A DNA stretch of 49,996 nt from Paraglomus brasilianum (Eukaryota): positions 1 through 49,996 of the forward strand of contig CAJVPI010000140.1 in assembly GCA_910592345.1 (NCBI GenBank). The letters are read 5' to 3'. Position 1 is the first letter of the stretch. Every line of letters starts with the position of its first letter. Under the pieces are notes generated by a model. It saw only the letters and a program-made list of their open reading frames with translations, did no database searches and was not told where the DNA came from. A program made the translations under genes and the position numbers. Positions 7,063 to 48,999 of the stretch are shown here, one piece after another.

Positions 7063-7822
7063 TGTTACGGTCGGGAATTAAATGGGGGCTTGGGGAGAGC
7101 GATTTATCTTTCGCGTAGGCGTGTTCGTCGACCGGGAGAAGTTACCAGGCTTAGCTCGTACTATCGCCCTTAATACGATAGTTGTACAATTAAGACTGAA
7201 TTAAGCCTACAAGTGACCTTAATTATTTATGCGCGCTTTTCGTTCCCTATCCGAGTTTCAAACAAATAAGGGTATCTCTAATAGAATAATAACAACAATG
7301 ATTCTACTGTATTAAAGAATCGAAGTGGAATAATGCTATTTTAAAAATAATATAAACAGGGCTATCTTCGATTTGTTTGTTGTTCTACTAAACTAATTAA
7401 ACAAAACTCTCGTTCCGTTATTCACGTAATTGATCCGCGGACAACTTACTAGTTTGATCAAATCAATGCTATTCCGTTACAGTTTAAATGAGCCGTTTAT
7501 TGGAGTGTCCGGCCTAACAATCAATTATTTCGACGATAAAAGAATTAAAACGTATATTGATTAAAGGATTTCGGGAGAACACTACTAATATCAGTAATAC
7601 TATTAATTTATTTGAATAACAACTTCACGTTCGATGTTCGCACAACACAATCTTTTGACGATGGAAATTGAGCTACTTATATATCTTTTAGCGTCGCAGA
7701 AAAAGTGAACCGCTTTTAGACTACTAATTCCTATGAAGAGTAATTGGATAAAATATAATGTCAATCGTGGGCTTTCTTGACTGCAGAGGAAGATTTTATC
7801 ATCAGATCAGCTTGCCATAACA
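7063..7822 (-). mobile_element. Solo LTR, same family as the LTR at 37610
   Basis: Begins TGTTACGG and ends CCATAACA (terminal inverted repeat, TG...CA). About 550 bp are clearly homologous to 37610-38180. Flanks tcta/tata are an imperfect 4-bp TSD. Strand is inferred from the gypsy copy. Confidence 0.7.
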
Positions 7823-21290: not shown

Positions 21291-22139
21291 GTGAAGGAGG
21301 TTGAGATCTGAGCGGGAGAGAGAGAATACAAGGTGTATGTAATATACGTTGAAGCGCGAGTTGTGACAACAATGAATATGTTATTATTATATTACGTGCA
21401 AGTTTTAAGACCTTACCATATATAGGACACTCTTGAAAACTTGGAATTTCATGTGATTTTCATGAGAAGATTGATTGGTCAAAATATCGAGACTTGTTAT
21501 TTATTCATTGTACTGTATGTTCGGTGTATGATTCAACGTCCAAGTCCATTGTGAACATTGTTACAGTATTAGCATCCGTTAACCCTAACCCTAATTGCAA
21601 GTTTTTCTACAAAAACTATATAAACCAGGGCTTTTCTGTTTCCCACAATTGTCACTTTCACTATTCAATTTTATAAGCTGTCGTTTCGTACTCTCATTGA
21701 ACCATCTTTATGAAAGATTCCAACGTCTTTTTAAATTTATTATTGCATGACATGACTATAATAGGATCTGTCGACAAATTACCAAGTGGCGGCCAAATTT
21801 GTCTTTGAAACGCATACTCACATTTCTATAATGAAAAACGTAATTACCTTATTTGACTGTCGTTGAGCCATCCTCGCTGATAGAACCTGAATACCAGATG
21901 CGCATATCCCGTAACCTGGCGATTGGAACAACTAAGCTTACTGTTGCTCATACCGATAGGTTATGAAGTGAACATAACAAGCGTAATCCATAATAATCTG
22001 AGCTTCTCTCTTACAATAACACTAACAACTATTGTACACGAGTACCAAATACATAACTTTGGAGTACCTAATTGCATATTTCTGTACAAGTGAATTTGCA
22101 CAATCACGATATATCGTAAATGTAATAGTAAACGTTTAT

Positions 22140-22260
22140 TTTAAGGACTTAAAAACTATTATTATTAATACACGCCTACATTAAAACCTATCATTACTAA
22201 TAAATTAGGAATAACAAGTCCTGTCAGGGAATAGGTTCCCGCGTAGCCTAAGCTGACTCC
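22140..22260 (-). ncRNA. Putative Fanzor omega-RNA scaffold / element right end
   Basis: Immediately 3' of the Fanzor stop: hairpin GGGAA-CCTA-TTCCC (22227-22240), long-range stem AGGACTT/AAGTCCT (22216-22222 with 22144-22150) and inner CTAAT/ATTAG hairpin. The position matches known omega-RNAs. Confidence 0.55.
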
Positions 22261-23802
22261 TTTTTTGTAAGATATCGACGAAGAATATTGCGAGCACCAT
22301 TAACATCTCTATCAAGGTTTGTTTTACATTGGGGACAGCAAAACACCTTAGCTTTTTTATGAATATAACCGCAGGATCCAAGTTTTACTTGTGTTACTAC
22401 TCGACAGGGATGCTCACGTGCCTTATGGATCAAATGCTGTTGAAATTGACAATGTGACCATGTAGAACCAATGCGTCGTCGGACCATTCCTTGAGTGCGA
22501 AATTCGATTAGTAATATTATGCGATAGTTTTCACAAAGCCATTTAGCTAGTTTGTGATGACAATCATTCACAAGACAACGGATCCTCTTATGAGTGCATA
22601 ACGTAATCTACAATTGAAAGTAGTATATATGTTAAATTATAAATAAATATTAAATAAATAATTTAATTAATAAAATTTACCTGTAACGTTTTCGCTTATT
22701 TTTTTTTCCATGAATACAATCGCGTTTACTTTGAAGTTTGTCGCATGCATGACTCAATCGCTAAATTCGGCCAATGTCGTTTTTTACAGCTACCCCACTT
22801 GGATCATAACCTGTCATGAATGTACGTACACCTGGATCCAGAGAAATCACTCCTGATCTCTCCTATTACATTATTAAATATATAATTGTTAAAGTTTTAA
22901 TTTAATAGATAATATAATATAATAAAAAAATTAGATCAATACCTTTTGAAATATAGGGCCTTGGTTTTCAGCCCGTATTTCAAGTGGTCTGGGTATACAA
23001 GATAATATTTCCCTCGTCGATTCATAACAAGGCGGCTACGTGTATCATATTCAAGCTTATTTGGAAGAGGTTTGATTTTAGAGAGAAATGAATATTCGCC
23101 ACGAGACTTGCCCCAGTGTTTAGAAAGTATTGTAATTGATTGTTGAGGATTTTTTGGAACGGAGCTTCATCTTGAATTTTTTACGATTGGCAGCAAAATT
23201 GGAAGAATATCCTTTAAGCAAGTCGTTCATTGCTTCATCGCGAATGTCATAGGGAGTTTAAGTTTGGTATCATTGAAGTTTTTGGCGTTGAGACATAGTG
23301 CGCGTAGATCCTTCTTTTTTTTCTTTTTCGACGGCGGTAAGGCACTGATTGTATGTCCATCGTGCTGTTCCCATCCATCTTCTGAGTTTCAGCCGCTCCT
23401 GCTGGTTGGGATAAATGCGAATACGTTGTGCCTTGCCTGCTGAAGGTTTCTTGGAACTCTTGAACCTCTTGGGCGGCTTCTCTTCTCCTTCTGCGGTTTG
23501 CAGCCTAACGTAGTCCATTATGTCGCGCCACAAACACTGTGACGATTGCGAGTAGGTCTTCTGCGAGCTCTCCATTGGTATAAACTTCTGAACCGAGAAC
23601 CACGAGCCGTGTCCCATTTTTTTCAAAGATTCACTCCACAAGTTCGGACACAAGCGGTCTTTTCGGGTAACCACCACTTCTTCGACTCCTTTAGAGTATA
23701 TTTGTTCCAAACCCTGCGTTTCCAATTGAGCCCTGTGATCTGTCCGTAGGTTGGGGAGCTGAGGACCTCCTTTGTTTGAACCGTTTTTAGTGGTGTTAGC
23801 AT
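22248..23802 (-). pseudogene. Fanzor2 (eukaryotic IS607-type TnpB) RNA-guided nuclease, degenerate, with two spliceosomal introns (22863-22942, 22608-22680)
   Basis: Motifs in order: WNKYTLKESKKWWLPEKTAC, GSWFSV, RIRIYPNQQERLKLRRWMGTARWTYNQCL (OrfB HTH), PYDIRDEAMNDLLKGYSSNF, RuvC-I VISLDPGVRTFMTGYDP, CHHKLAKWLCENYRIILL, WSHCQFQQHLIHKA, Zn ribbon SCG...CPQC, RuvC-III LDRDVNGARNI. Multiple frameshifts and small deletions. Confidence 0.92.
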
Positions 23803-25186
23803 TGAGGGGAGAGATTATGTGTTTACGATTTTAATTTTCAAATGAGCAAAATATTGTAATGGTTGAAGAGTTTGGGGGATAATGTCTTTAAATACGTTTA
23901 TGGTTGAATGGCGGAACCGAAAACATGCATAAAACATTCAATCTTATATGGAGCCTACGCGCATAAAAATGTGGGTTGTTTAAGAATGTGAGTTAAGTGA
24001 GTTAACCGTGTTTAATCATCAAGTAGACTTGGTTCGAAAATTGCACAACGGTCAACTTGCGATTGTTATTAACTAGGAATAGTATTAGCTATAATCGAGA
24101 TACGATAAACAGTGTTCATGAGAGGCTATTGTTGTGTCGATTAATGGAAACCGTTGCTTGACCTAATTGATTTTGTTCGCCACCAAATAAAGAATGATAC
24201 ATAGTAAAATAATAATCTTATTCTTGTGCTCAAACATAACTGATGACGATAACAAAAAACGGAAATTTGCATGTTTAAGCAACCTTCTTCGATGACGAGG
24301 CTAATAATAATAATTTACTTTATTGAACTGGAACAGTTGGGACTTGTACATAAATGCTTATCGCTTTGCAGTAGCACTGCTTTTGATCGTGAATATTTCT
24401 GCTTGAAATTACCGGATTTTGTTGAATTCCACCACATCATCAGGTAAACGTTCCGCATACACGAAAGATCATTATAATTATAACACAATGCAACAATATA
24501 TGTCATAACTTCAATTATAAGTTTTCTTAACGAAACCATACGATGGATGGCTATCGTTTAATTAACAGTCGTTATCATCCTTCTGGAAGTAGCAACGGAA
24601 AAAGAGCTTCGTTATTGTAATTTTAACACAAATAACATATCGAGTTATTATTATTGGTTGGGTATGTCCACAGCAATGGGGAAATTTCATATGGCCAACC
24701 ACGTATTAGTAGGAAATTAAATATATAGTCCATCCACTTTAAAAATATTGGAATCGTAAATATATTTATTATTTGTTCTTTAATACTAAAAGTTGCGCAG
24801 ACTCGAAGCGCTCTCTAAATTTTGATAAAGTGTTCTCAATAGTTTGCCTCCCCAAACCGATATGATGAAATGGGCGAGGGAGGCCCTAAATTGAAACTAG
24901 TCTATTTGCGCATTACACTTCTCAGTTCTATTATAAAATAATCAAAAGTCCTTTTTTTTTGGAGATACACTGTTTCCACGACTACCAATGCTATAATAAC
25001 TATGTCTTTTTTGATGTGATATTTTCTATACGTGTTGTTTTTATGGAATTCTTATTTTTATTAATATATATCATCATTTTATAGACAATTAATTTAACTG
25101 CCCGGTATGTCAAAAATTCTAGTTTTGAGACTGACTACGAATCCTTTTGCGACAAGCTATTGCAATATTAAGAACACACAAACTTA

Positions 25187-27200
25187 TCAAAGGAATAATC
25201 CCTCAATACCACCTTCAGCAGCAGTTTCCTAAATGAAGACAATATTATAGATTAATGTCTATCCACAAAACAGACAAAACGTCCAAGTGGACAATCAATA
25301 GTCAATAATATACTGACCTTAACAAACATTTCAAAGTATGAATATATGATTGTAACGGCCAACAGTATACCGGTACCGGATCCAAGAGCACCTGTTTATC
25401 GCAAAATGGTTTGTAAATATGGCAATTCATCAATGTTCTGCCCTAAAGTTATTCTTCTTACCGAGTAGATCAGCCATAACGGATAAAGCACCGATGCAAG
25501 CACCACCAAAAGCTGCAGCTGTTGGAATTACACGCTTCAACTCCTTGTACACAGATGTGTCACGATGACCGGCAATTATTATTCCTTGATCTTTGAGTTG
25601 TTTAGCGACATCGCGAGGAGAAGAATTGGAAACTTCAATCCACGTCTTGGAAAACAAAGCACAGGCCGACAAAGTGAACGTGACATATAAAACCGTGTGT
25701 ATAGGATCCTTAAGTGCGTCGAGAATGCTATGTGGAGGAGAGATGAAATACGCAAGGCCGCTTGAAGCATATTGCTGACTAGAGCCTTCATGTGTCTGAT
25801 ATGAAAAGAAAAAGATTTTAGTATATATCCGCAAGAGCAGTTTATTCCCTCGTACTCTCACGGTACTCACCGACCATACACCAAGCATTCTAATAAGGAT
25901 ATTCTCTGGAAATCGGTTGTACATCATTTGTGAGATAAGGAAGATATTCGAAGTCAAGGCTGATTGAAGCATAATGGGCATATTTGATGTATAGAACAGT
26001 TTGACTGGGTAAGTGCTACGCTGTCCACGGGCTCTGCGTGAAATAACAGGTATTTCGACTCTGAATCCCTGGAGATAAATAACAATGGCGAAGACGCTAA
26101 CGGTGGCCAAAAGATTCATAACATTGGGCAAGTTATTGCGATAGAAAGCCTCTTTCAGAGCACGAGTCTTGTCACCACGAGTAATAAGCAAATGGAACAA
26201 TGCGATAATGGCTCCTTCGAACTCAGGTCCACGCCCGGTATTTACAGTAGTCGGGCTGAATGCCTTCCAGATAATAGACTCGCAAATATTTGTGGCAATA
26301 AATAGCGAAATTCCCGATCCGAGACCATATCCTTTTTGCAACAACTCATCCAAAAGCATCGATATTAACCCAGCCATGACCAACTGAATGACCAACAGCA
26401 AACAGACACCAGCCCCAATTTCGGACGGATCACCGTATAGTCCCGTCAAGACAGACACAGTTGCTTGACCGAATGCAAACACCATTGCAAAGAGTTTTTG
26501 CGCACCGTTAAATAGAGCACGGTCTTCTTTCAGAGAATAGTCAACGTCGATAAGACCAGCACCGGCAAGAAGTTGCATGATCATTCCTGAAGTCACAATT
26601 GGGGTGATTCCGAGTTCCATAAGAGTTCCACGGTTAGAGGCAAGAATTACACGCAGCCAGTAGAGAGGGTCCGATGAGTCTGACGACATGATGCCATATA
26701 ATGGAATTTGGGAGCATACTAAAAAGATAAACAGCGTGACTGCTGTCCAAAGAATCTTCTGCCGGAAAGGGACCTAGTGCGTAGATATATGCATATGCAA
26801 ATATTGTCAGCATGGCAGTAAACGATGTTAAATCATAAAACGACATTATAAATGTTAGAATCACTTGTTGTGAATACTCTAACAATAAATAAATTTATGT
26901 GAAATATTGCATGGCTAATAAACTGTTCCCAGTACCTTTCGATCTGGTGCAGTCACTTCAGGAAGTATGGACATAAACGGCCTGATGAGATGAAGGAATC
27001 GGACTGGAAAGAAATAATAAATCAACGTAATGTTAGTACGAAACAAAGACTTGCCACATACTCAACAAACTCTTTCTCGCATGTCTCTTGTGAGATGGTT
27101 TGAAATCGCATCTCCTGCCAGGACATAACGACATACTGGTACTGATGACCTACAACTTGCTAACAGTTGAAATAAACCGAAACTGATACGCACATCCCAT
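25187..27200 (-). CDS. SEC61: Protein transport protein Sec61 subunit alpha; exons 27200-27194, 27003-26936, 26773-25871, 25795-25462, 25391-25318, 25228-25187
   Basis: [19 protein letters not shown]...[63 protein letters not shown]...[19 protein letters not shown]...[21 protein letters not shown]. All introns GT-AG and in frame. Confidence 0.98.
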
Positions 27201-37609: not shown

Positions 37610-39510
37610 TGTTACGGTCGGGAATTAAAAGGAGGTTTGGGAGAGCGAATTTATCTTTTGCGTAGGGGGTGTTACCAGGCTTAGCGCCCTTACTACGATA
37701 GTTGTGCAATTAAGACTGAATTAAGCCTCAAATGACCTATTTTAATTATGCGCGCTTCTCACTCCCTATCCGAGTTTCAAACACTTGTGAATACAAATAA
37801 GGGTACCTCTAATAAAATAATAACAATTATTCTACTAAAGAATCGAAGGGGAATAATACTATTTTTAAATTTAAACAGGGCTATCTTCGATTTGTGTTTC
37901 GACTAGTCGGTATCCGTCACTTGTCTTTACTAAACTAATTAAACAATATTCGTCTCGATAATTAGTTATGAACTCTCGTTCCGTTATTCACGTAATTGAT
38001 CCGCGGACAGCTTATTAGCTTGATCAAATCAATGCTATTCCGTTACAGCTTAAGTGAGCCGTTTATTGGGAGTGTCCGGTCTAATAATCAATTATTTCGA
38101 CGATAGAATATTAAATTATGTATGTTTATAATAAAGGATTCCGGGAGAATACTACTAAGATCAGTAATATATTATTTTATTTCACAACATAGACAACATT
38201 ACAACATGAAGATTTATATATCTTTTCTGTCACAAGAAAGACGACACGCCTCTATATAAATTATTAACAATTAATTTTAGCGTTTGTGCTGTCACAAAAT
38301 TAGCGACACGCTGCTGCGTCTGTCACAGAATTTCTAATTGTTATTCCATCGTCAAAATTTTTGTTGTCTTTATACATTAAGTAAGTTCTTATTGCTGTTC
38401 TAGAGCGATGTACTGAGACTTCTTTTCTCCCCCTTTTAAACTTTACTAATATTTCTCCCATTCTATAATATATCTCTTTACTTAATATCATATCCCCTCT
38501 CAACTCTAATTCCATCTCTTCCTTCAATTCATTCCATTTCTCCCTCCATTTTTTTTCTCCCCCCTTTTTTCTTTCTCTCCTTCCTTTTTCTATAGTTTAC
38601 ACACTGCTCTCGATCACTGAACTTTTTTCCGAGCTTTTTTTTTAAGTTCTATGGACTTAATTTTTGTGGACGTTTCTGTGGTTGATTCCGTGGAAGACTC
38701 TACGGGAGTTTTTCTTCTAGCCCCAGATATCCTCATCGTATGGGACTTCAGTTGGTCCTTGGAGGATATATTGTCTCTCCAATTTCTTCTTCCTCCGACT
38801 GTTGGGTCATCTGGTCCCCAAGTTGGTTCTTCGATTTCGTCTTCTTCAAAGGCTGGCCTTCCGTGAATTGTAGGGTATGTTCTGGAAATCCGTAGTTATC
38901 ATTGGTTGGGAATTGTCCTGGATAATAGACTGCCCAATTATTGTTGTTGGTTGCAACGCTACCAACTGCGCCTCGTTGTTATAACTATTATATCTGCCGG
39001 ATTGATTATGATAGTCTGGGGTATCAGAGGCATTGCTTCTAGCATCTTTGTTATCTCCTCGTCGATCATCATTTTTGCAGCCTCTCGAGGAATGGATCCA
39101 TATACGAATTGTAAGGCCATTCTGCGGATTTCGTCGCCCATTCTCTGTTGGTTTTCAGTGGACCATTGTTCAGACTGCATGTATGCCCATACATCCAGGA
39201 CGTCGTCAATGGAATATTCGAAAACGATGGTTGTACTCTCATCTGTTCTGGTGGTTTTGATATAATCGGTTATTAGATCTTTTAATGTCAGAATATTTGA
39301 TGTCCGTGGATTTTTATATTTATAGAATGGTCGTAGAGAATGGTTGTGGTCGTAGAAAATTGCTGTGCTTAATAAAAAGGTTACTGTGGGTAAGTTTATA
39401 TGCCGTTTTCCGTTTTGTACTGATGTATTTTATGAGTTGCTCGTATTTTGCAGGGTGAGTGGCTTATTTTAGTCTTTCTTTTGATAGATTGGGTTTCGAG
39501 AGAGAGCATC
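37610..39510 (-). mobile_element. Ty3/gypsy LTR retrotransposon remnant (3' LTR plus deleted pol)
   Basis: LTR homologous to 7063-7822. Polypurine tracts on the minus strand at 38420-38585. Minus-strand fragments DALSRNP (RNase H end, about 39490-39510), then IFYDHNHSL and LITDYIKT (integrase Zn-finger region), giving the RH-then-IN order of gypsy. Inner LTR boundary uncertain (38296-38490). Confidence 0.7.
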
Positions 39511-45785: not shown

Positions 45786-45919
45786 ATTTTAAAGGAATTG
45801 AGTGTGCTTGACTAAATAAATTTTTCAGGGTTCAAATGACGACTCAAATATGTAATAATAGTGGGGGGTTTTAATCAGTATTGTATTCTTAACAAGCCAT
45901 TGTCACAGTATATTTGAGT

Positions 45920-46340
45920 TTCAGAATTCCAGACAACTTTGGTTTTGAACAAAGAGCAAAGCTCTTTACATTTTATTAACAAACAAACAATATAATATAA
46001 TAACAGCAACAAGAACATCATCACTCCTCCAACGTCTCTTTCTCCTTGGCTTTCAAACATTTCCAAAATTTCAGACAACTTTTGAACAAAGAGCAAAGCT
46101 TTTACATTTTTTTTATTAATAAATAAATAATATAGTAAAATAAATAATGGCAACCAGAACATCATCACTCCTCCAAAATTTCAGACAACTTTTGAACAAA
46201 GAGCAAAGCTCTTTACATTTTATTAATAAACAAATATATAATATAATATAATATAATATAATATTGAATATAATAAATAATGGAACCAGAACATCATCAC
46301 TCCTCCAACGTCTCTTCTCCTTGGCTTTCAAATATTTCCA
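45920..46340. repeat. Complex local tandem duplication (three partial copies of a CAGACAACTTT...GAACAAAGAGCAAAGCT...AGAACATCATCACTCCTCCAA unit)
   Basis: Directly visible repeated blocks starting near 45930, 46070 and 46180. Confidence 0.85.
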
Positions 46341-46674
46341 AGAGGTATTCTACCTCCTCTTGGTAGACGTTGGTTTCGGAGTTCTCCAGGATCTCCAGGG
46401 TGGCAGTGGTGGTGGTAGTAGTGGTAGTAGTGGTCGGGGTAGTGGTCTGGTCGGGGAGGTAGTGGGGGAGGTAGTGGGGGTGGTGGGGGTGGCAGTGGTG
46501 GTGTGGCTACTGCTTTCTGAAAACTTTTTGCGGCGGCCACTTGTCCAGGAAGTCTTTCTTAACGATTGCCATTTCGAGTCACTAAGTGACTTCCACGCGT
46601 CCATCGCAAGCTTCATGCCACTACCGTTTGAAAAAATCCACCGCGAATATTTGTGCCGCCCCACACGGTCTCTT

Positions 46675-46972
46675 CGGACGCCCATCCACTCTTAGAGTAT
46701 TGTTGTACTCGAAGAGTTCCTCCTTGCTGGAAACAAGACGTGCCAACTCTTGGTTAAACTGTTGTTCGACGTCGGGAGGAAGAAGGTGATAAAAGACATT
46801 TTTTTTGTAGTAGTAGTAATAGTAGTGGTGGTGGTAGTAGTAGACGGACGCCCATCCACTCTTAGAGTATTGTTGTACTTTAAGAGTTCCTCTTTGCTGG
46901 AAACAAGGCGTGCCAACTCTTGGTCGAACTGTTGTTCGACGTCGGGGAGGAGGAAGGTGATAAAAGACATTT
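46675..46972. repeat. 128-bp direct duplication (46675-46802, 46845-46972) of a minus-strand ORF start, separated by (GTA/GTG)n
   Basis: Both copies begin MSFITF on the minus strand. The upstream copy reads MSFITFLLPDVEQQFDQELARLVSSKEELLKYNNTLRVDGRP; the other is frameshifted. Confidence 0.9.
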
Positions 46973-48999
46973 GGTAGTAATGGTGGTTGGTGGTAAGAGT
47001 AGTAGTATAGTAGTAGTAATGGTGGTAGGTGGTAGGTGGTAGAGTAGGAGTAGTAGTAGTAATAATCACTTTGTTGGTGATGTTCTTTGCAAAAAGTAAG
47101 AGATGTCAGCTTTATAGGAAGTATTACCCGTAGATATCCAGGGTTGTCACACCATCAATTGGTTACTCGCGTTCCTATTTTTGTATCGATTACTACAGCA
47201 CAAGAATGACAAATTGGTTAAGCACAGTTGTTTTAGGACTAGTCTTGTAACAACAAATGCAGTCGATTACATCACACGCTCATGTCATCAAAAAGCATAA
47301 GCTCTATATTTCCTAGTCAATGAATGTCATTTGTACAGTGTTATAAATACTGTGTTCATTAGTGTACAGAGAATCTTGAATGTTTTCGTAGAAAATCAAA
47401 GCAAACATCCTTCTTCTCTATTCGAGTGATAGTGACATTCATACGTTTTATTGCTGTGTTCCATCGACGTTCCATATTGTGTTTCTATTGTCATGCAGCT
47501 TATACATGCAGCAGCATACCTTTTAAGCTCCTGTTGCTCAGGGTAACTGATGGCCATGGACTGATGAGCTGATAAACCTTGTTGGCATACAGCATCAGAC
47601 TCACTGTATATTACAGTAGTCGATAAATAATGATTTAACCAACGAATATTACTCATACCAACGTTTGTTATTATATACATTACGCAGTATAGGTTTAATA
47701 TTAATTAAGTTTTATTAGATTATCTTGAATATGGCGGTGTTACTATATTTGCATTTTCTTATTTCCATTATCGGATATTCACTACTACTTACATTACGAT
47801 TAACATATTTCACAATTCACTTCTTGTTGTGTGCTAGCAGGTTGGGAGGTGTCGTGTGTGCAGAAAATGCTGCATTCGTTAAAGGGGTTGTGGTTGTGTT
47901 TCAACGGTACTGGCGGCGAGGCTGGACGATTTGTTGGTTAAGTGGTCGTGATTATTATTTTGAGTCTGTATATGATATTTGTGAGTTTGTTGGTTTTTTA
48001 TATTTACAGTAATAAAGATACCAAATTTTTTACCTAATGAATTTGTGATTGTATGATTCTACTTGTTGACAACGTTGTGTTTTTGTATAGTACTATTTCG
48101 GTTGGGGGATCATGTGAAAAATAAACAACTCCTTTCAAATAATGAAGGTGGATATCGTCTATGATAGCGAAACTACTTTGGTTGCTTTAAATTTAGAAAG
48201 TAAATTGTATAAAAAATGGTACTAAGTCCAGCCTTAATTCACTGACAAATATAATCGTCATTACGTTTTACATATTCTGGTATTTTTCTCGACGGCGGAG
48301 TCATGAGGCACGGCAAATCTGAAATAAAGTGTTTATTTATTTCTTCTTCAGACTAACCAAGAACATGCGGTTTTTTGTATAGTCACATTACGCGCGGCTT
48401 TGGCATATGGAATGATACAAAAAGCTTTTAACGCTCTGGAATCGAAGCGTAACAAAGACCTCGATGACCTCTGTGCTCGACAGCCATATTTCTGCATCAG
48501 GTCAAACTCAACTGTAAATAATGTGATCATTAAAGGAAAATAATTCTTACTTTACATGAAATTTTATGCGCTGTATCCATTACTAGCTTATTATTATGGC
48601 TAATTACCCCTCACGAACTGGGGAGCTTTGTCGGCCTTTGCAACCCTATACCCTTTTTATGTTTGGTGTGAAAGACCTGAAACGTAATCGTTATCTTCAC
48701 CTTGCAATTGGTTAATCATCCAATAGACTGCCCTGCCCAGGAATGAAGTCAGTAGATAATAATAAAGAACAAAGAGACGGAATGTTGATTCACATTTACC
48801 ATTAGATCCCAAATGGCCTTAAAAGAATTGTAAGATCATCGATAATAACAGTTATCAGTCACTGGACATGTCCAAACAGGTGCATTATTACACAAAATCT
48901 GATTGCAAATAAAGCCACAAAATACAACCACAAATTAGCAAATAGTTATTTGAAATCGTCCAACATAAATACTCGATTATTATATTGTTATGACCAACA

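Follow-up and report, generated by a model that had tools for sequence, protein, structure and literature searches.

A decayed IS607-type Fanzor2 transposon lies at about 24050-22173 on the minus strand of the 49,996-nt stretch of Paraglomus brasilianum DNA analysed here (the window), and the region examined covers its right end (Table 1). This right end is shared with other copies of the element and likely encodes an omega-RNA scaffold (predicted at ~22259-22173), which in this copy is likely a relic. The remnants of two transposon genes are present, the sequence shared among copies stops at a terminal GCG, and both the stems and the pairing of the hairpin loop with the scaffold terminus covary between families. 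The first-pass annotation of this DNA had proposed an omega-RNA of the Fanzor type at the right end of the element, and the shared end, the covariation and a layout like that of Naegleria lovaniensis Fanzor2 (NlovFz2) uphold the proposal. The minus-strand motifs that it quoted are all where it put them; it overlooked that a further 5' stem covers the stop codon and that the genes are broken.

Table 1. Features of the transposon copy and of its predicted scaffold (positions in the window).
Feature	Position	Strand	Basis
Predicted omega-RNA scaffold, about 87 nt	22173..22259	minus	Shared end, covariation, 5' stem; NlovFz2 layout
5' stem-loop over stop codon, one base missing (bulge) in window copy	22243..22257	minus	Stem counts, contigs
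Pseudoknot hairpin, stem 22240-22237/22230-22227, loop 22236-22231	22227..22240	minus	Paired 98.6% in A2, 95.8% in held-out A3
Long stem, 22222-22210 with 22195-22183, G.U-rich base	22183..22222	minus	Fold, A2, alignments
3' strand of pseudoknot	22174..22179	minus	Family complementarity, A2, held-out matches
Terminal GCG: element right end, predicted scaffold end	22173..22175	minus	Invariant columns in A2; end of shared sequence; NlovFz2
Right flank, predicted guide	22153..22172	minus	Loose ends; flanks; inference from NlovFz2
Broken Fanzor2 gene: frameshifts, stops, deletions	22248..23653	minus	PF12323, PF07282; tblastn; comparison with intact L041 ORF
Intron 1 (predicted), 80 nt, GT..AG, in Fanzor2	22863..22942	minus	Splice ends; absent from L041 and L006 ORFs
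Intron 2 (predicted), 73 nt, GT..AG, in Fanzor2	22608..22680	minus	Splice ends; absent from L041 and L006 ORFs
TnpA remnant: 3' half of IS607 serine recombinase, stops and frameshifts	23500..23736	minus	NF033518 E 1.2e-5; tblastn with L030 TnpA
High-depth segment replacing 5' half of recombinase gene	23790..23968		Sharp loose ends at 23790, depth
Left-end non-coding region of element	23969..24048	minus	Resembles L006 and L030 left ends by eye; inference
CCG at left boundary: predicted TAM; CG, predicted crossover dinucleotide	24049..24051	minus	Family comparison
Motifs GGGAA, CCTA, TTCCC, AGGACTT	22240-22236, 22235-22232, 22231-22227, 22222-22216	minus	
Motifs CTAAT, ATTAG, TAGG (two), AAGTCCT	22208-22204, 22201-22197, 22190-22187 and 22178-22175, 22150-22144	minus	

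The window is eukaryotic, with a Sec61-alpha gene at 25430-26773, AT-rich introns and intron-broken open reading frames. Upstream of the scaffold, minus-strand matches to PF12323 and PF07282 identify fragments of a TnpB-like gene, the Fanzor2 gene, which ends in a TAG stop codon at 22250-22248. This copy retains the DPG motif and the last RuvC Asp, and comparison with the relatives L030 and L041 shows that the segment with the rearranged catalytic Glu and the first zinc-finger Cys has been deleted; against the same two relatives, the TnpA remnant is without its HTH and catalytic-serine part. Summed depth is much higher over 23790-23968, where tblastn with the 5' half of the L030 TnpA gave no match and where loose ends are sharp at 23790, and this segment probably represents the insertion of another, abundant repeat. 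Judged from their sequences, both genes are broken and neither nuclease nor recombinase can be made by this copy. An 80-nt skip with the ends of the first predicted intron was found in one contig of run X20, which may be an RNA run, and may also represent an intronless copy. Intron sites vary among close families, with two in the Fanzor2 of the window's family and none in that of L041 or L006; the TnpA of the latter two carries one intron (L041:620-683), and a break in L064 is placed differently (L064:1856-1911). Within the window, no second copy of the element was found by blastn, and the covariance model described below had a single match, the locus itself. The window also holds a dispersed repeat pair (7063-7613 and 37610-38182, 76% identity) and tandem repeats (45919-47005).

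Relatives were collected with a degenerate pattern for the C-terminal motif, which matched at least 120 metagenome loci, four viral loci and seven loci in prokaryote genomes; another search of viral contigs gave one locus. Three of the relatives (L028, L063 and L067) belong to the window's own family at 77-83% DNA identity, and five (L006, L030, L041, L064 and L095) form a sister family. L041 lies beside an IS607 TnpA whose two exons matched NF033518 with 109.5 and 53.6 bits (cut-off 110), and its best PDB match was the mimivirus protein ApmFz2 (9b0l, E 2e-23), with the D-E-D triad aligned in register. Through L041, the family thus has a TnpB-like protein with DPG, the rearranged Glu near the zinc finger and the final RuvC Asp. 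Both L041 (672-2102) and L006 have intact, intronless Fanzor2 ORFs of ~480 amino acids, which overlap the 3' end of TnpA, and complete scaffolds. Among named proteins, one of Gigaspora margarita was nearest to the C-terminal piece (62% in the alignment); Diversispora, Gigaspora and Rhizophagus supplied the named relatives of L041, with D. epigaea proteins 63-95% identical. These Glomeromycota relatives suggest that the host is an arbuscular mycorrhizal fungus. In all, 1919 proteins reached E 1e-40 to L041. Published catalogues, in the available parts of the sources, list Rhizophagus proteins as FZ2 (PMC10432273) and include Diversispora and Rhizophagus among Fanzor HMM matches (PMC10711439). 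The catalogued proteins of Rhizophagus clarus (GET01997.1), R. irregularis (CAB4385202.1) and Diversispora epigaea share, by eye, the exon junctions and C-terminus of the window's family. In the literature that we searched, mainly open access, we found no description of the RNA, ends or TAM of a Glomeromycota Fanzor2.

The right end of the element was located by aligning the ends of its copies, as the first-pass annotation had suggested. Contigs of four runs were aligned to 22095-22270; X2 and X8 are one sample, possibly the source of the window, and X3 and X6 are soil metagenomes from two other, separate studies. Among the loose ends listed, 19 contigs diverge from the window at 22168-22175, 13 of them at 22172, with all four runs represented, and one contig diverging at 22195 is unlike the rest. 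At least four further contigs diverge at 22184-22191 and have the variant end ATAGGCG, in which the outer U.G pair of the knot becomes U-A. Depth is at flank level up to 22166, with many contigs beyond. A conserved non-coding stretch therefore runs from the end of the ORF to the right end, where conservation drops sharply, and the sequence common to other copies does not extend beyond TAGGCG(T). The first flank base, T at 22172, is common to most copies of the window's family, likely as a target-site preference.

Across the relatives collected, the 133 tails formed 73 clusters, 16 of which had several members; in seven of the 16 the common sequence stops at, or a few bases from, GCG or GCGT, three stop elsewhere (GGG-T, CGG-T, GAG-like), and six are duplicates, truncated or unclear. 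The families of L057, L074 and L080, of the L013 cluster and of the L045 cluster end in TAAGGG (with a CCTTAT loop), TGTAGAG and AACGG, respectively, which suggests other crossover dinucleotides and TAMs. Of the two scaffold ends put forward in the first pass, the one at TAGG (22175) is near, two bases short of the conserved end GCG (22175-22173), and the one at about 22143 is 22 nt or more beyond the shared sequence.

The 141-nt stretch of the first-pass annotation shows no excess of folding stability over shuffled sequence (z -1.0; 29 of 200 shuffles equalled it), the shared part of 78 nt (22250-22173) is modestly more stable (z -2.2; 5 of 200), and the family copy L063 reaches z -3.3, with none of 200 shuffles as good. 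As one of two options, the first-pass annotation had the scaffold closed near 22143 by a long stem of AGGACTT with AAGTCCT, which is indeed a perfect 7-bp match and makes the fold just 2 kcal/mol worse (-26.4 vs -28.4). However, because contigs of four runs diverge at 22168-22175, AAGTCCT lies in the unshared flank, and it was absent from all nine other flanks long enough to test (three of which are one insertion). Its pair probability is 0.006, and such a repeat occurs at chance rates: of 2000 shuffles, 66% contained a 7-bp inverted repeat and 14% one that had three or more G/C. The point of contig divergence refutes this stem as a family feature, and we give a scaffold closed in this way next to no credence.

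In the scaffold that ends at GCG, the partner of AGGACTT is AGGTTTT at 22189-22183, with a pair probability of 0.42 for the outermost pair and 0.79-0.99 for the other six; the long stem is paired in 75.6% of cells across alignment A2. At its tip, the proposed CTAAT-TT-ATTAG would need a 2-nt loop, and the fold gives four pairs around a 4-nt loop instead. The tip in the window is 21-24 nt shorter than in L028, L063 and L067, and both forms occur among the contigs. Beyond the right end, the flank at 22164-22149 carries, with two mismatches, a second version of a 16-mer from the scaffold's 3' strand, and neither strand of the window has a third such site.

The short hairpin read in the first pass as GGGAA-CCTA-TTCCC does form, with pair probabilities of 0.89-0.92 for four pairs, but in the rest of the family four base pairs (GGGA/TCCC) enclose a loop of six nucleotides, GCCTAT, and the window copy gains its fifth pair through a G-to-A change at 22236. 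This A was not seen in the other contigs of the right-end comparison or in L028, L063 and L067. An A at loop position 1 does occur in the intact-ORF relatives L006 and L041, and the outermost knot pair is often unpaired (12 of the 25 rows of A2), so that the window's A is tolerated in nature and need not be damaging.

Directly 5' of the hairpin, 26 of the 30 loci chosen for this test have a stem of at least 5 bp, against a null mean of 12 and a maximum of 19 in 500 rounds. It is preceded by GA in 18 loci, and the 5' end of the predicted scaffold was placed from this conserved GA. In the window's family, the 5' stem spans the stop codon. The window's version scores 2 when ungapped, and the base missing from it (after 22244) is present in contigs of all four runs. 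In X2 and X8, summed depth falls sharply at 22245 (window 22244-22245), which may reflect gene-less copies that keep the scaffold alone or contig breaks at the one-base indel. Rfam returned three chance-level matches, none over the scaffold's knot.

Covariation across copies, a further check proposed in the first pass, was found between the loop and the terminal bases and within the stems. To call ends, we used a rule that ignores the loop and four variable bases; it was written after the tails had been seen, and it called ends in 43 of the 73 clusters, leaving 30 without a call. In 28 of these 43 families, the loop of an upstream hairpin is perfectly complementary to the five bases NNNN-G, compared with a mean of 2.8 and a maximum of 10 when termini were swapped between families (5000 permutations). 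The 28 families use 15 different loop/terminus 4-mers, so that whatever the tree, no fewer than 14 compensated changes are required. The remaining 15 families are misses when all 5 bp are demanded, and the window copy is among them because its fifth pair is U.G; its knot consists of four Watson-Crick pairs (22235-22232 with 22175-22178), this U.G pair and one A-C mismatch.

Two alignments point the same way. The 25 rows of A2 are biased, because 21 were chosen from families that matched in the loop-complement test, and its five inner knot pairs hold in 24, 24, 23, 23 and 22 of 24 rows. A covariance model without the knot pairs was then run on 83 of 132 loci, with 24 training loci and 25 duplicate or truncated loci left out, and matched 16 (held-out set A3), eight of which share a cluster with a training member and two more of which come from the loop-complement test. 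Across these 16 loci, pairing at the six knot pairs is 86%, and hairpin and knot together have a covariation score of 0.55, against 0.195 when shuffled and at most 0.167 when slid; new loci such as L002, L031, L061, L072 and L081 keep four or five knot pairs. A pseudoknot of the 5' hairpin loop with the last bases of the scaffold is thus supported by covariation and is weakened in the window copy. The CCTA loop had been matched in the first pass to two TAGG words, and it is the terminal one (22178-22175) that covaries. The other, GATAGG, was rejected as a knot partner, as it showed no covariation and was paired at chance level (58% vs 56% shuffled); it belongs to the 3' strand of the long stem.

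It could be argued that this conserved structure serves the mRNA 3' end or the recognition of the DNA end by TnpA rather than a guide RNA, all the more so as recombination is predicted to take place at the same terminal CG. Stems that tolerate G.U pairs and a long-range knot with compensatory changes point instead to single-stranded RNA, the layout equals that of the working NlovFz2 scaffold (PMC10432273), and the activity of the IS607 element ISXfa1 needs the knot (PMC10711439). We consider such a role highly improbable.

At the left end, CCG-TT followed by TTTCGAAC is common to L006, L030 and the window, and the DNA upstream of it differs among the three; the sequence common to L016 and L050 starts at TCCG. 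Depth is above flank level up to the bin ending at 24048 in three of three DNA runs, a weak signal. A left end near 23955-23968, taken from loose ends, was dropped after comparison with L006, L030 and L016/L050. L041 parts from L030 at an internal CG instead of at the left-end CCG. The CG is firm at the right end; at the left end it is a candidate drawn from just two comparisons between families. The sequence predicts 5'-CCG as the TAM, and if CG marks both ends, an empty site would consist of CCG and then the right flank. Among the 25 longest inverted repeats, none convincingly joined the two ends as a terminal inverted repeat. Fanzor1 elements are described, in the part of PMC10711439 available, as having no pseudoknot and as bounded by terminal inverted repeats and a target-site duplication; the element studied here departs from this description, since its pseudoknot covaries.

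A close parallel is NlovFz2, whose TAM is CCG and whose scaffold ends in GCG (PMC10432273; this and the following comparisons refer to the available parts of the sources). As in NlovFz2, the scaffold starts with GAG and a 5' stem, continues with a G-rich hairpin and a long stem, and ends in GCG; the NlovFz2 hairpin is of 3 bp, with a loop complementary to the terminal bases, as here, and its TAM matches the left end of the window's element (PMC10432273). The knot is CCTA/TAGG in the window and CCTT/AAGG in NlovFz2, and the window's scaffold is shorter, without the extra stem after the hairpin, and accompanies genes that are intron-bearing and broken (PMC10432273). Because this layout and the GCG end match, we place the scaffold at ~22259-22173 and the predicted start of the guide at 22172; the view that the flank following the scaffold supplies the guide, already taken in the first pass, would hold by the same analogy. 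By eye, the right end of another relative (L088:141-258) differs little from the scaffold end published for NlovFz2.

Two further systems share the principal features. ApmFz2, a mimivirus IS607 Fanzor2 (PDB 9B0L), has an IS607 TnpA and a pseudoknot in which 5' nucleotides pair with the final bases of the scaffold, and its RuvC domain reads G:C and C:G pairs, which may be compared with the near-invariant C-G pair here (24 of 24 rows); its TAM is GGG and its scaffold 205 nt, against a predicted CCG and about 87 nt in the window (PMC11832414). The reRNA of the IS607 TnpB of ISXfa1 likewise has a dinucleotide crossover, a scaffold that ends at the element end and a knot, which is required for activity, but it is bacterial, without introns, and uses a GG crossover and a GGG TAM (PMC10711439). 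A pseudoknot has been predicted for Fanzor2 (PMC10711439), and introns in Fanzors and conserved 3' regions have been described (PMC10530073).

By analogy with these systems, the element may have worked in the following way. First, the serine recombinase of an intact copy would join the CG at both ends to the CG of a CCG target. Second, transcription through the right end would yield the scaffold and ~20 nt of flank from 22172, and this RNA would fold into the 5' stem, a single long stem and, between them, the short hairpin, with its loop knotted to the terminal bases. Finally, the WED/RuvC groove would grip the pseudoknot, and the complex would cut empty sites of CCG plus flank, so favouring retention of the element.

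It is possible that the present copy, with the same scaffold and boundaries, continues to produce its RNA and that this joins a Fanzor2 from another locus, acting as a stand-alone "ghost" guide directed at the empty site. Decay has touched the scaffold far less than the genes, its short-tip form is also found in other copies, and the scaffold exceeds the coding part in summed depth, which is not copy number; moreover, ghost omega-RNAs are reported to work for SpuFz1 (PMC10432273, in the part available), and the sister family has intact Fanzor2 ORFs. However, the window's scaffold carries three small lesions, 78 nt are too short to tell selection from chance, and the intact ORFs found belong to the sister family. 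We therefore regard a working guide here as unlikely and take the scaffold of this copy to be, as stated at the outset, a likely relic.

In summary, the locus itself is ordinary, as the type of system is known, its fungal proteins are already catalogued and the copy is broken. The Fanzor2 pseudoknot, previously supported by one structure and one mutant rescue, gains natural compensatory support from 15 loop/terminus sequences, and a simple rule gives the scaffold end (GCG), the guide start and the predicted TAM (CCG) for a large clade. More speculatively, and as a whole even less likely than a working guide at this locus, arbuscular mycorrhizal fungi may harbour a live CG-crossover IS607-Fanzor2 family in which many gene-dead copies, the present one among them, keep a minimal omega-RNA of ~87 nt and supply guides in trans, and in which a few intact, sometimes intron-bearing Fanzor2 proteins cut empty CCG sites and so spread insertions between the nuclei of a shared cytoplasm. 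Arbuscular mycorrhizal fungi, which are symbiotic, have few genetic tools. The predicted scaffold is among the shortest, and the intact relatives L041 and L006 are candidates for a compact editor from this group of symbiotic fungi.
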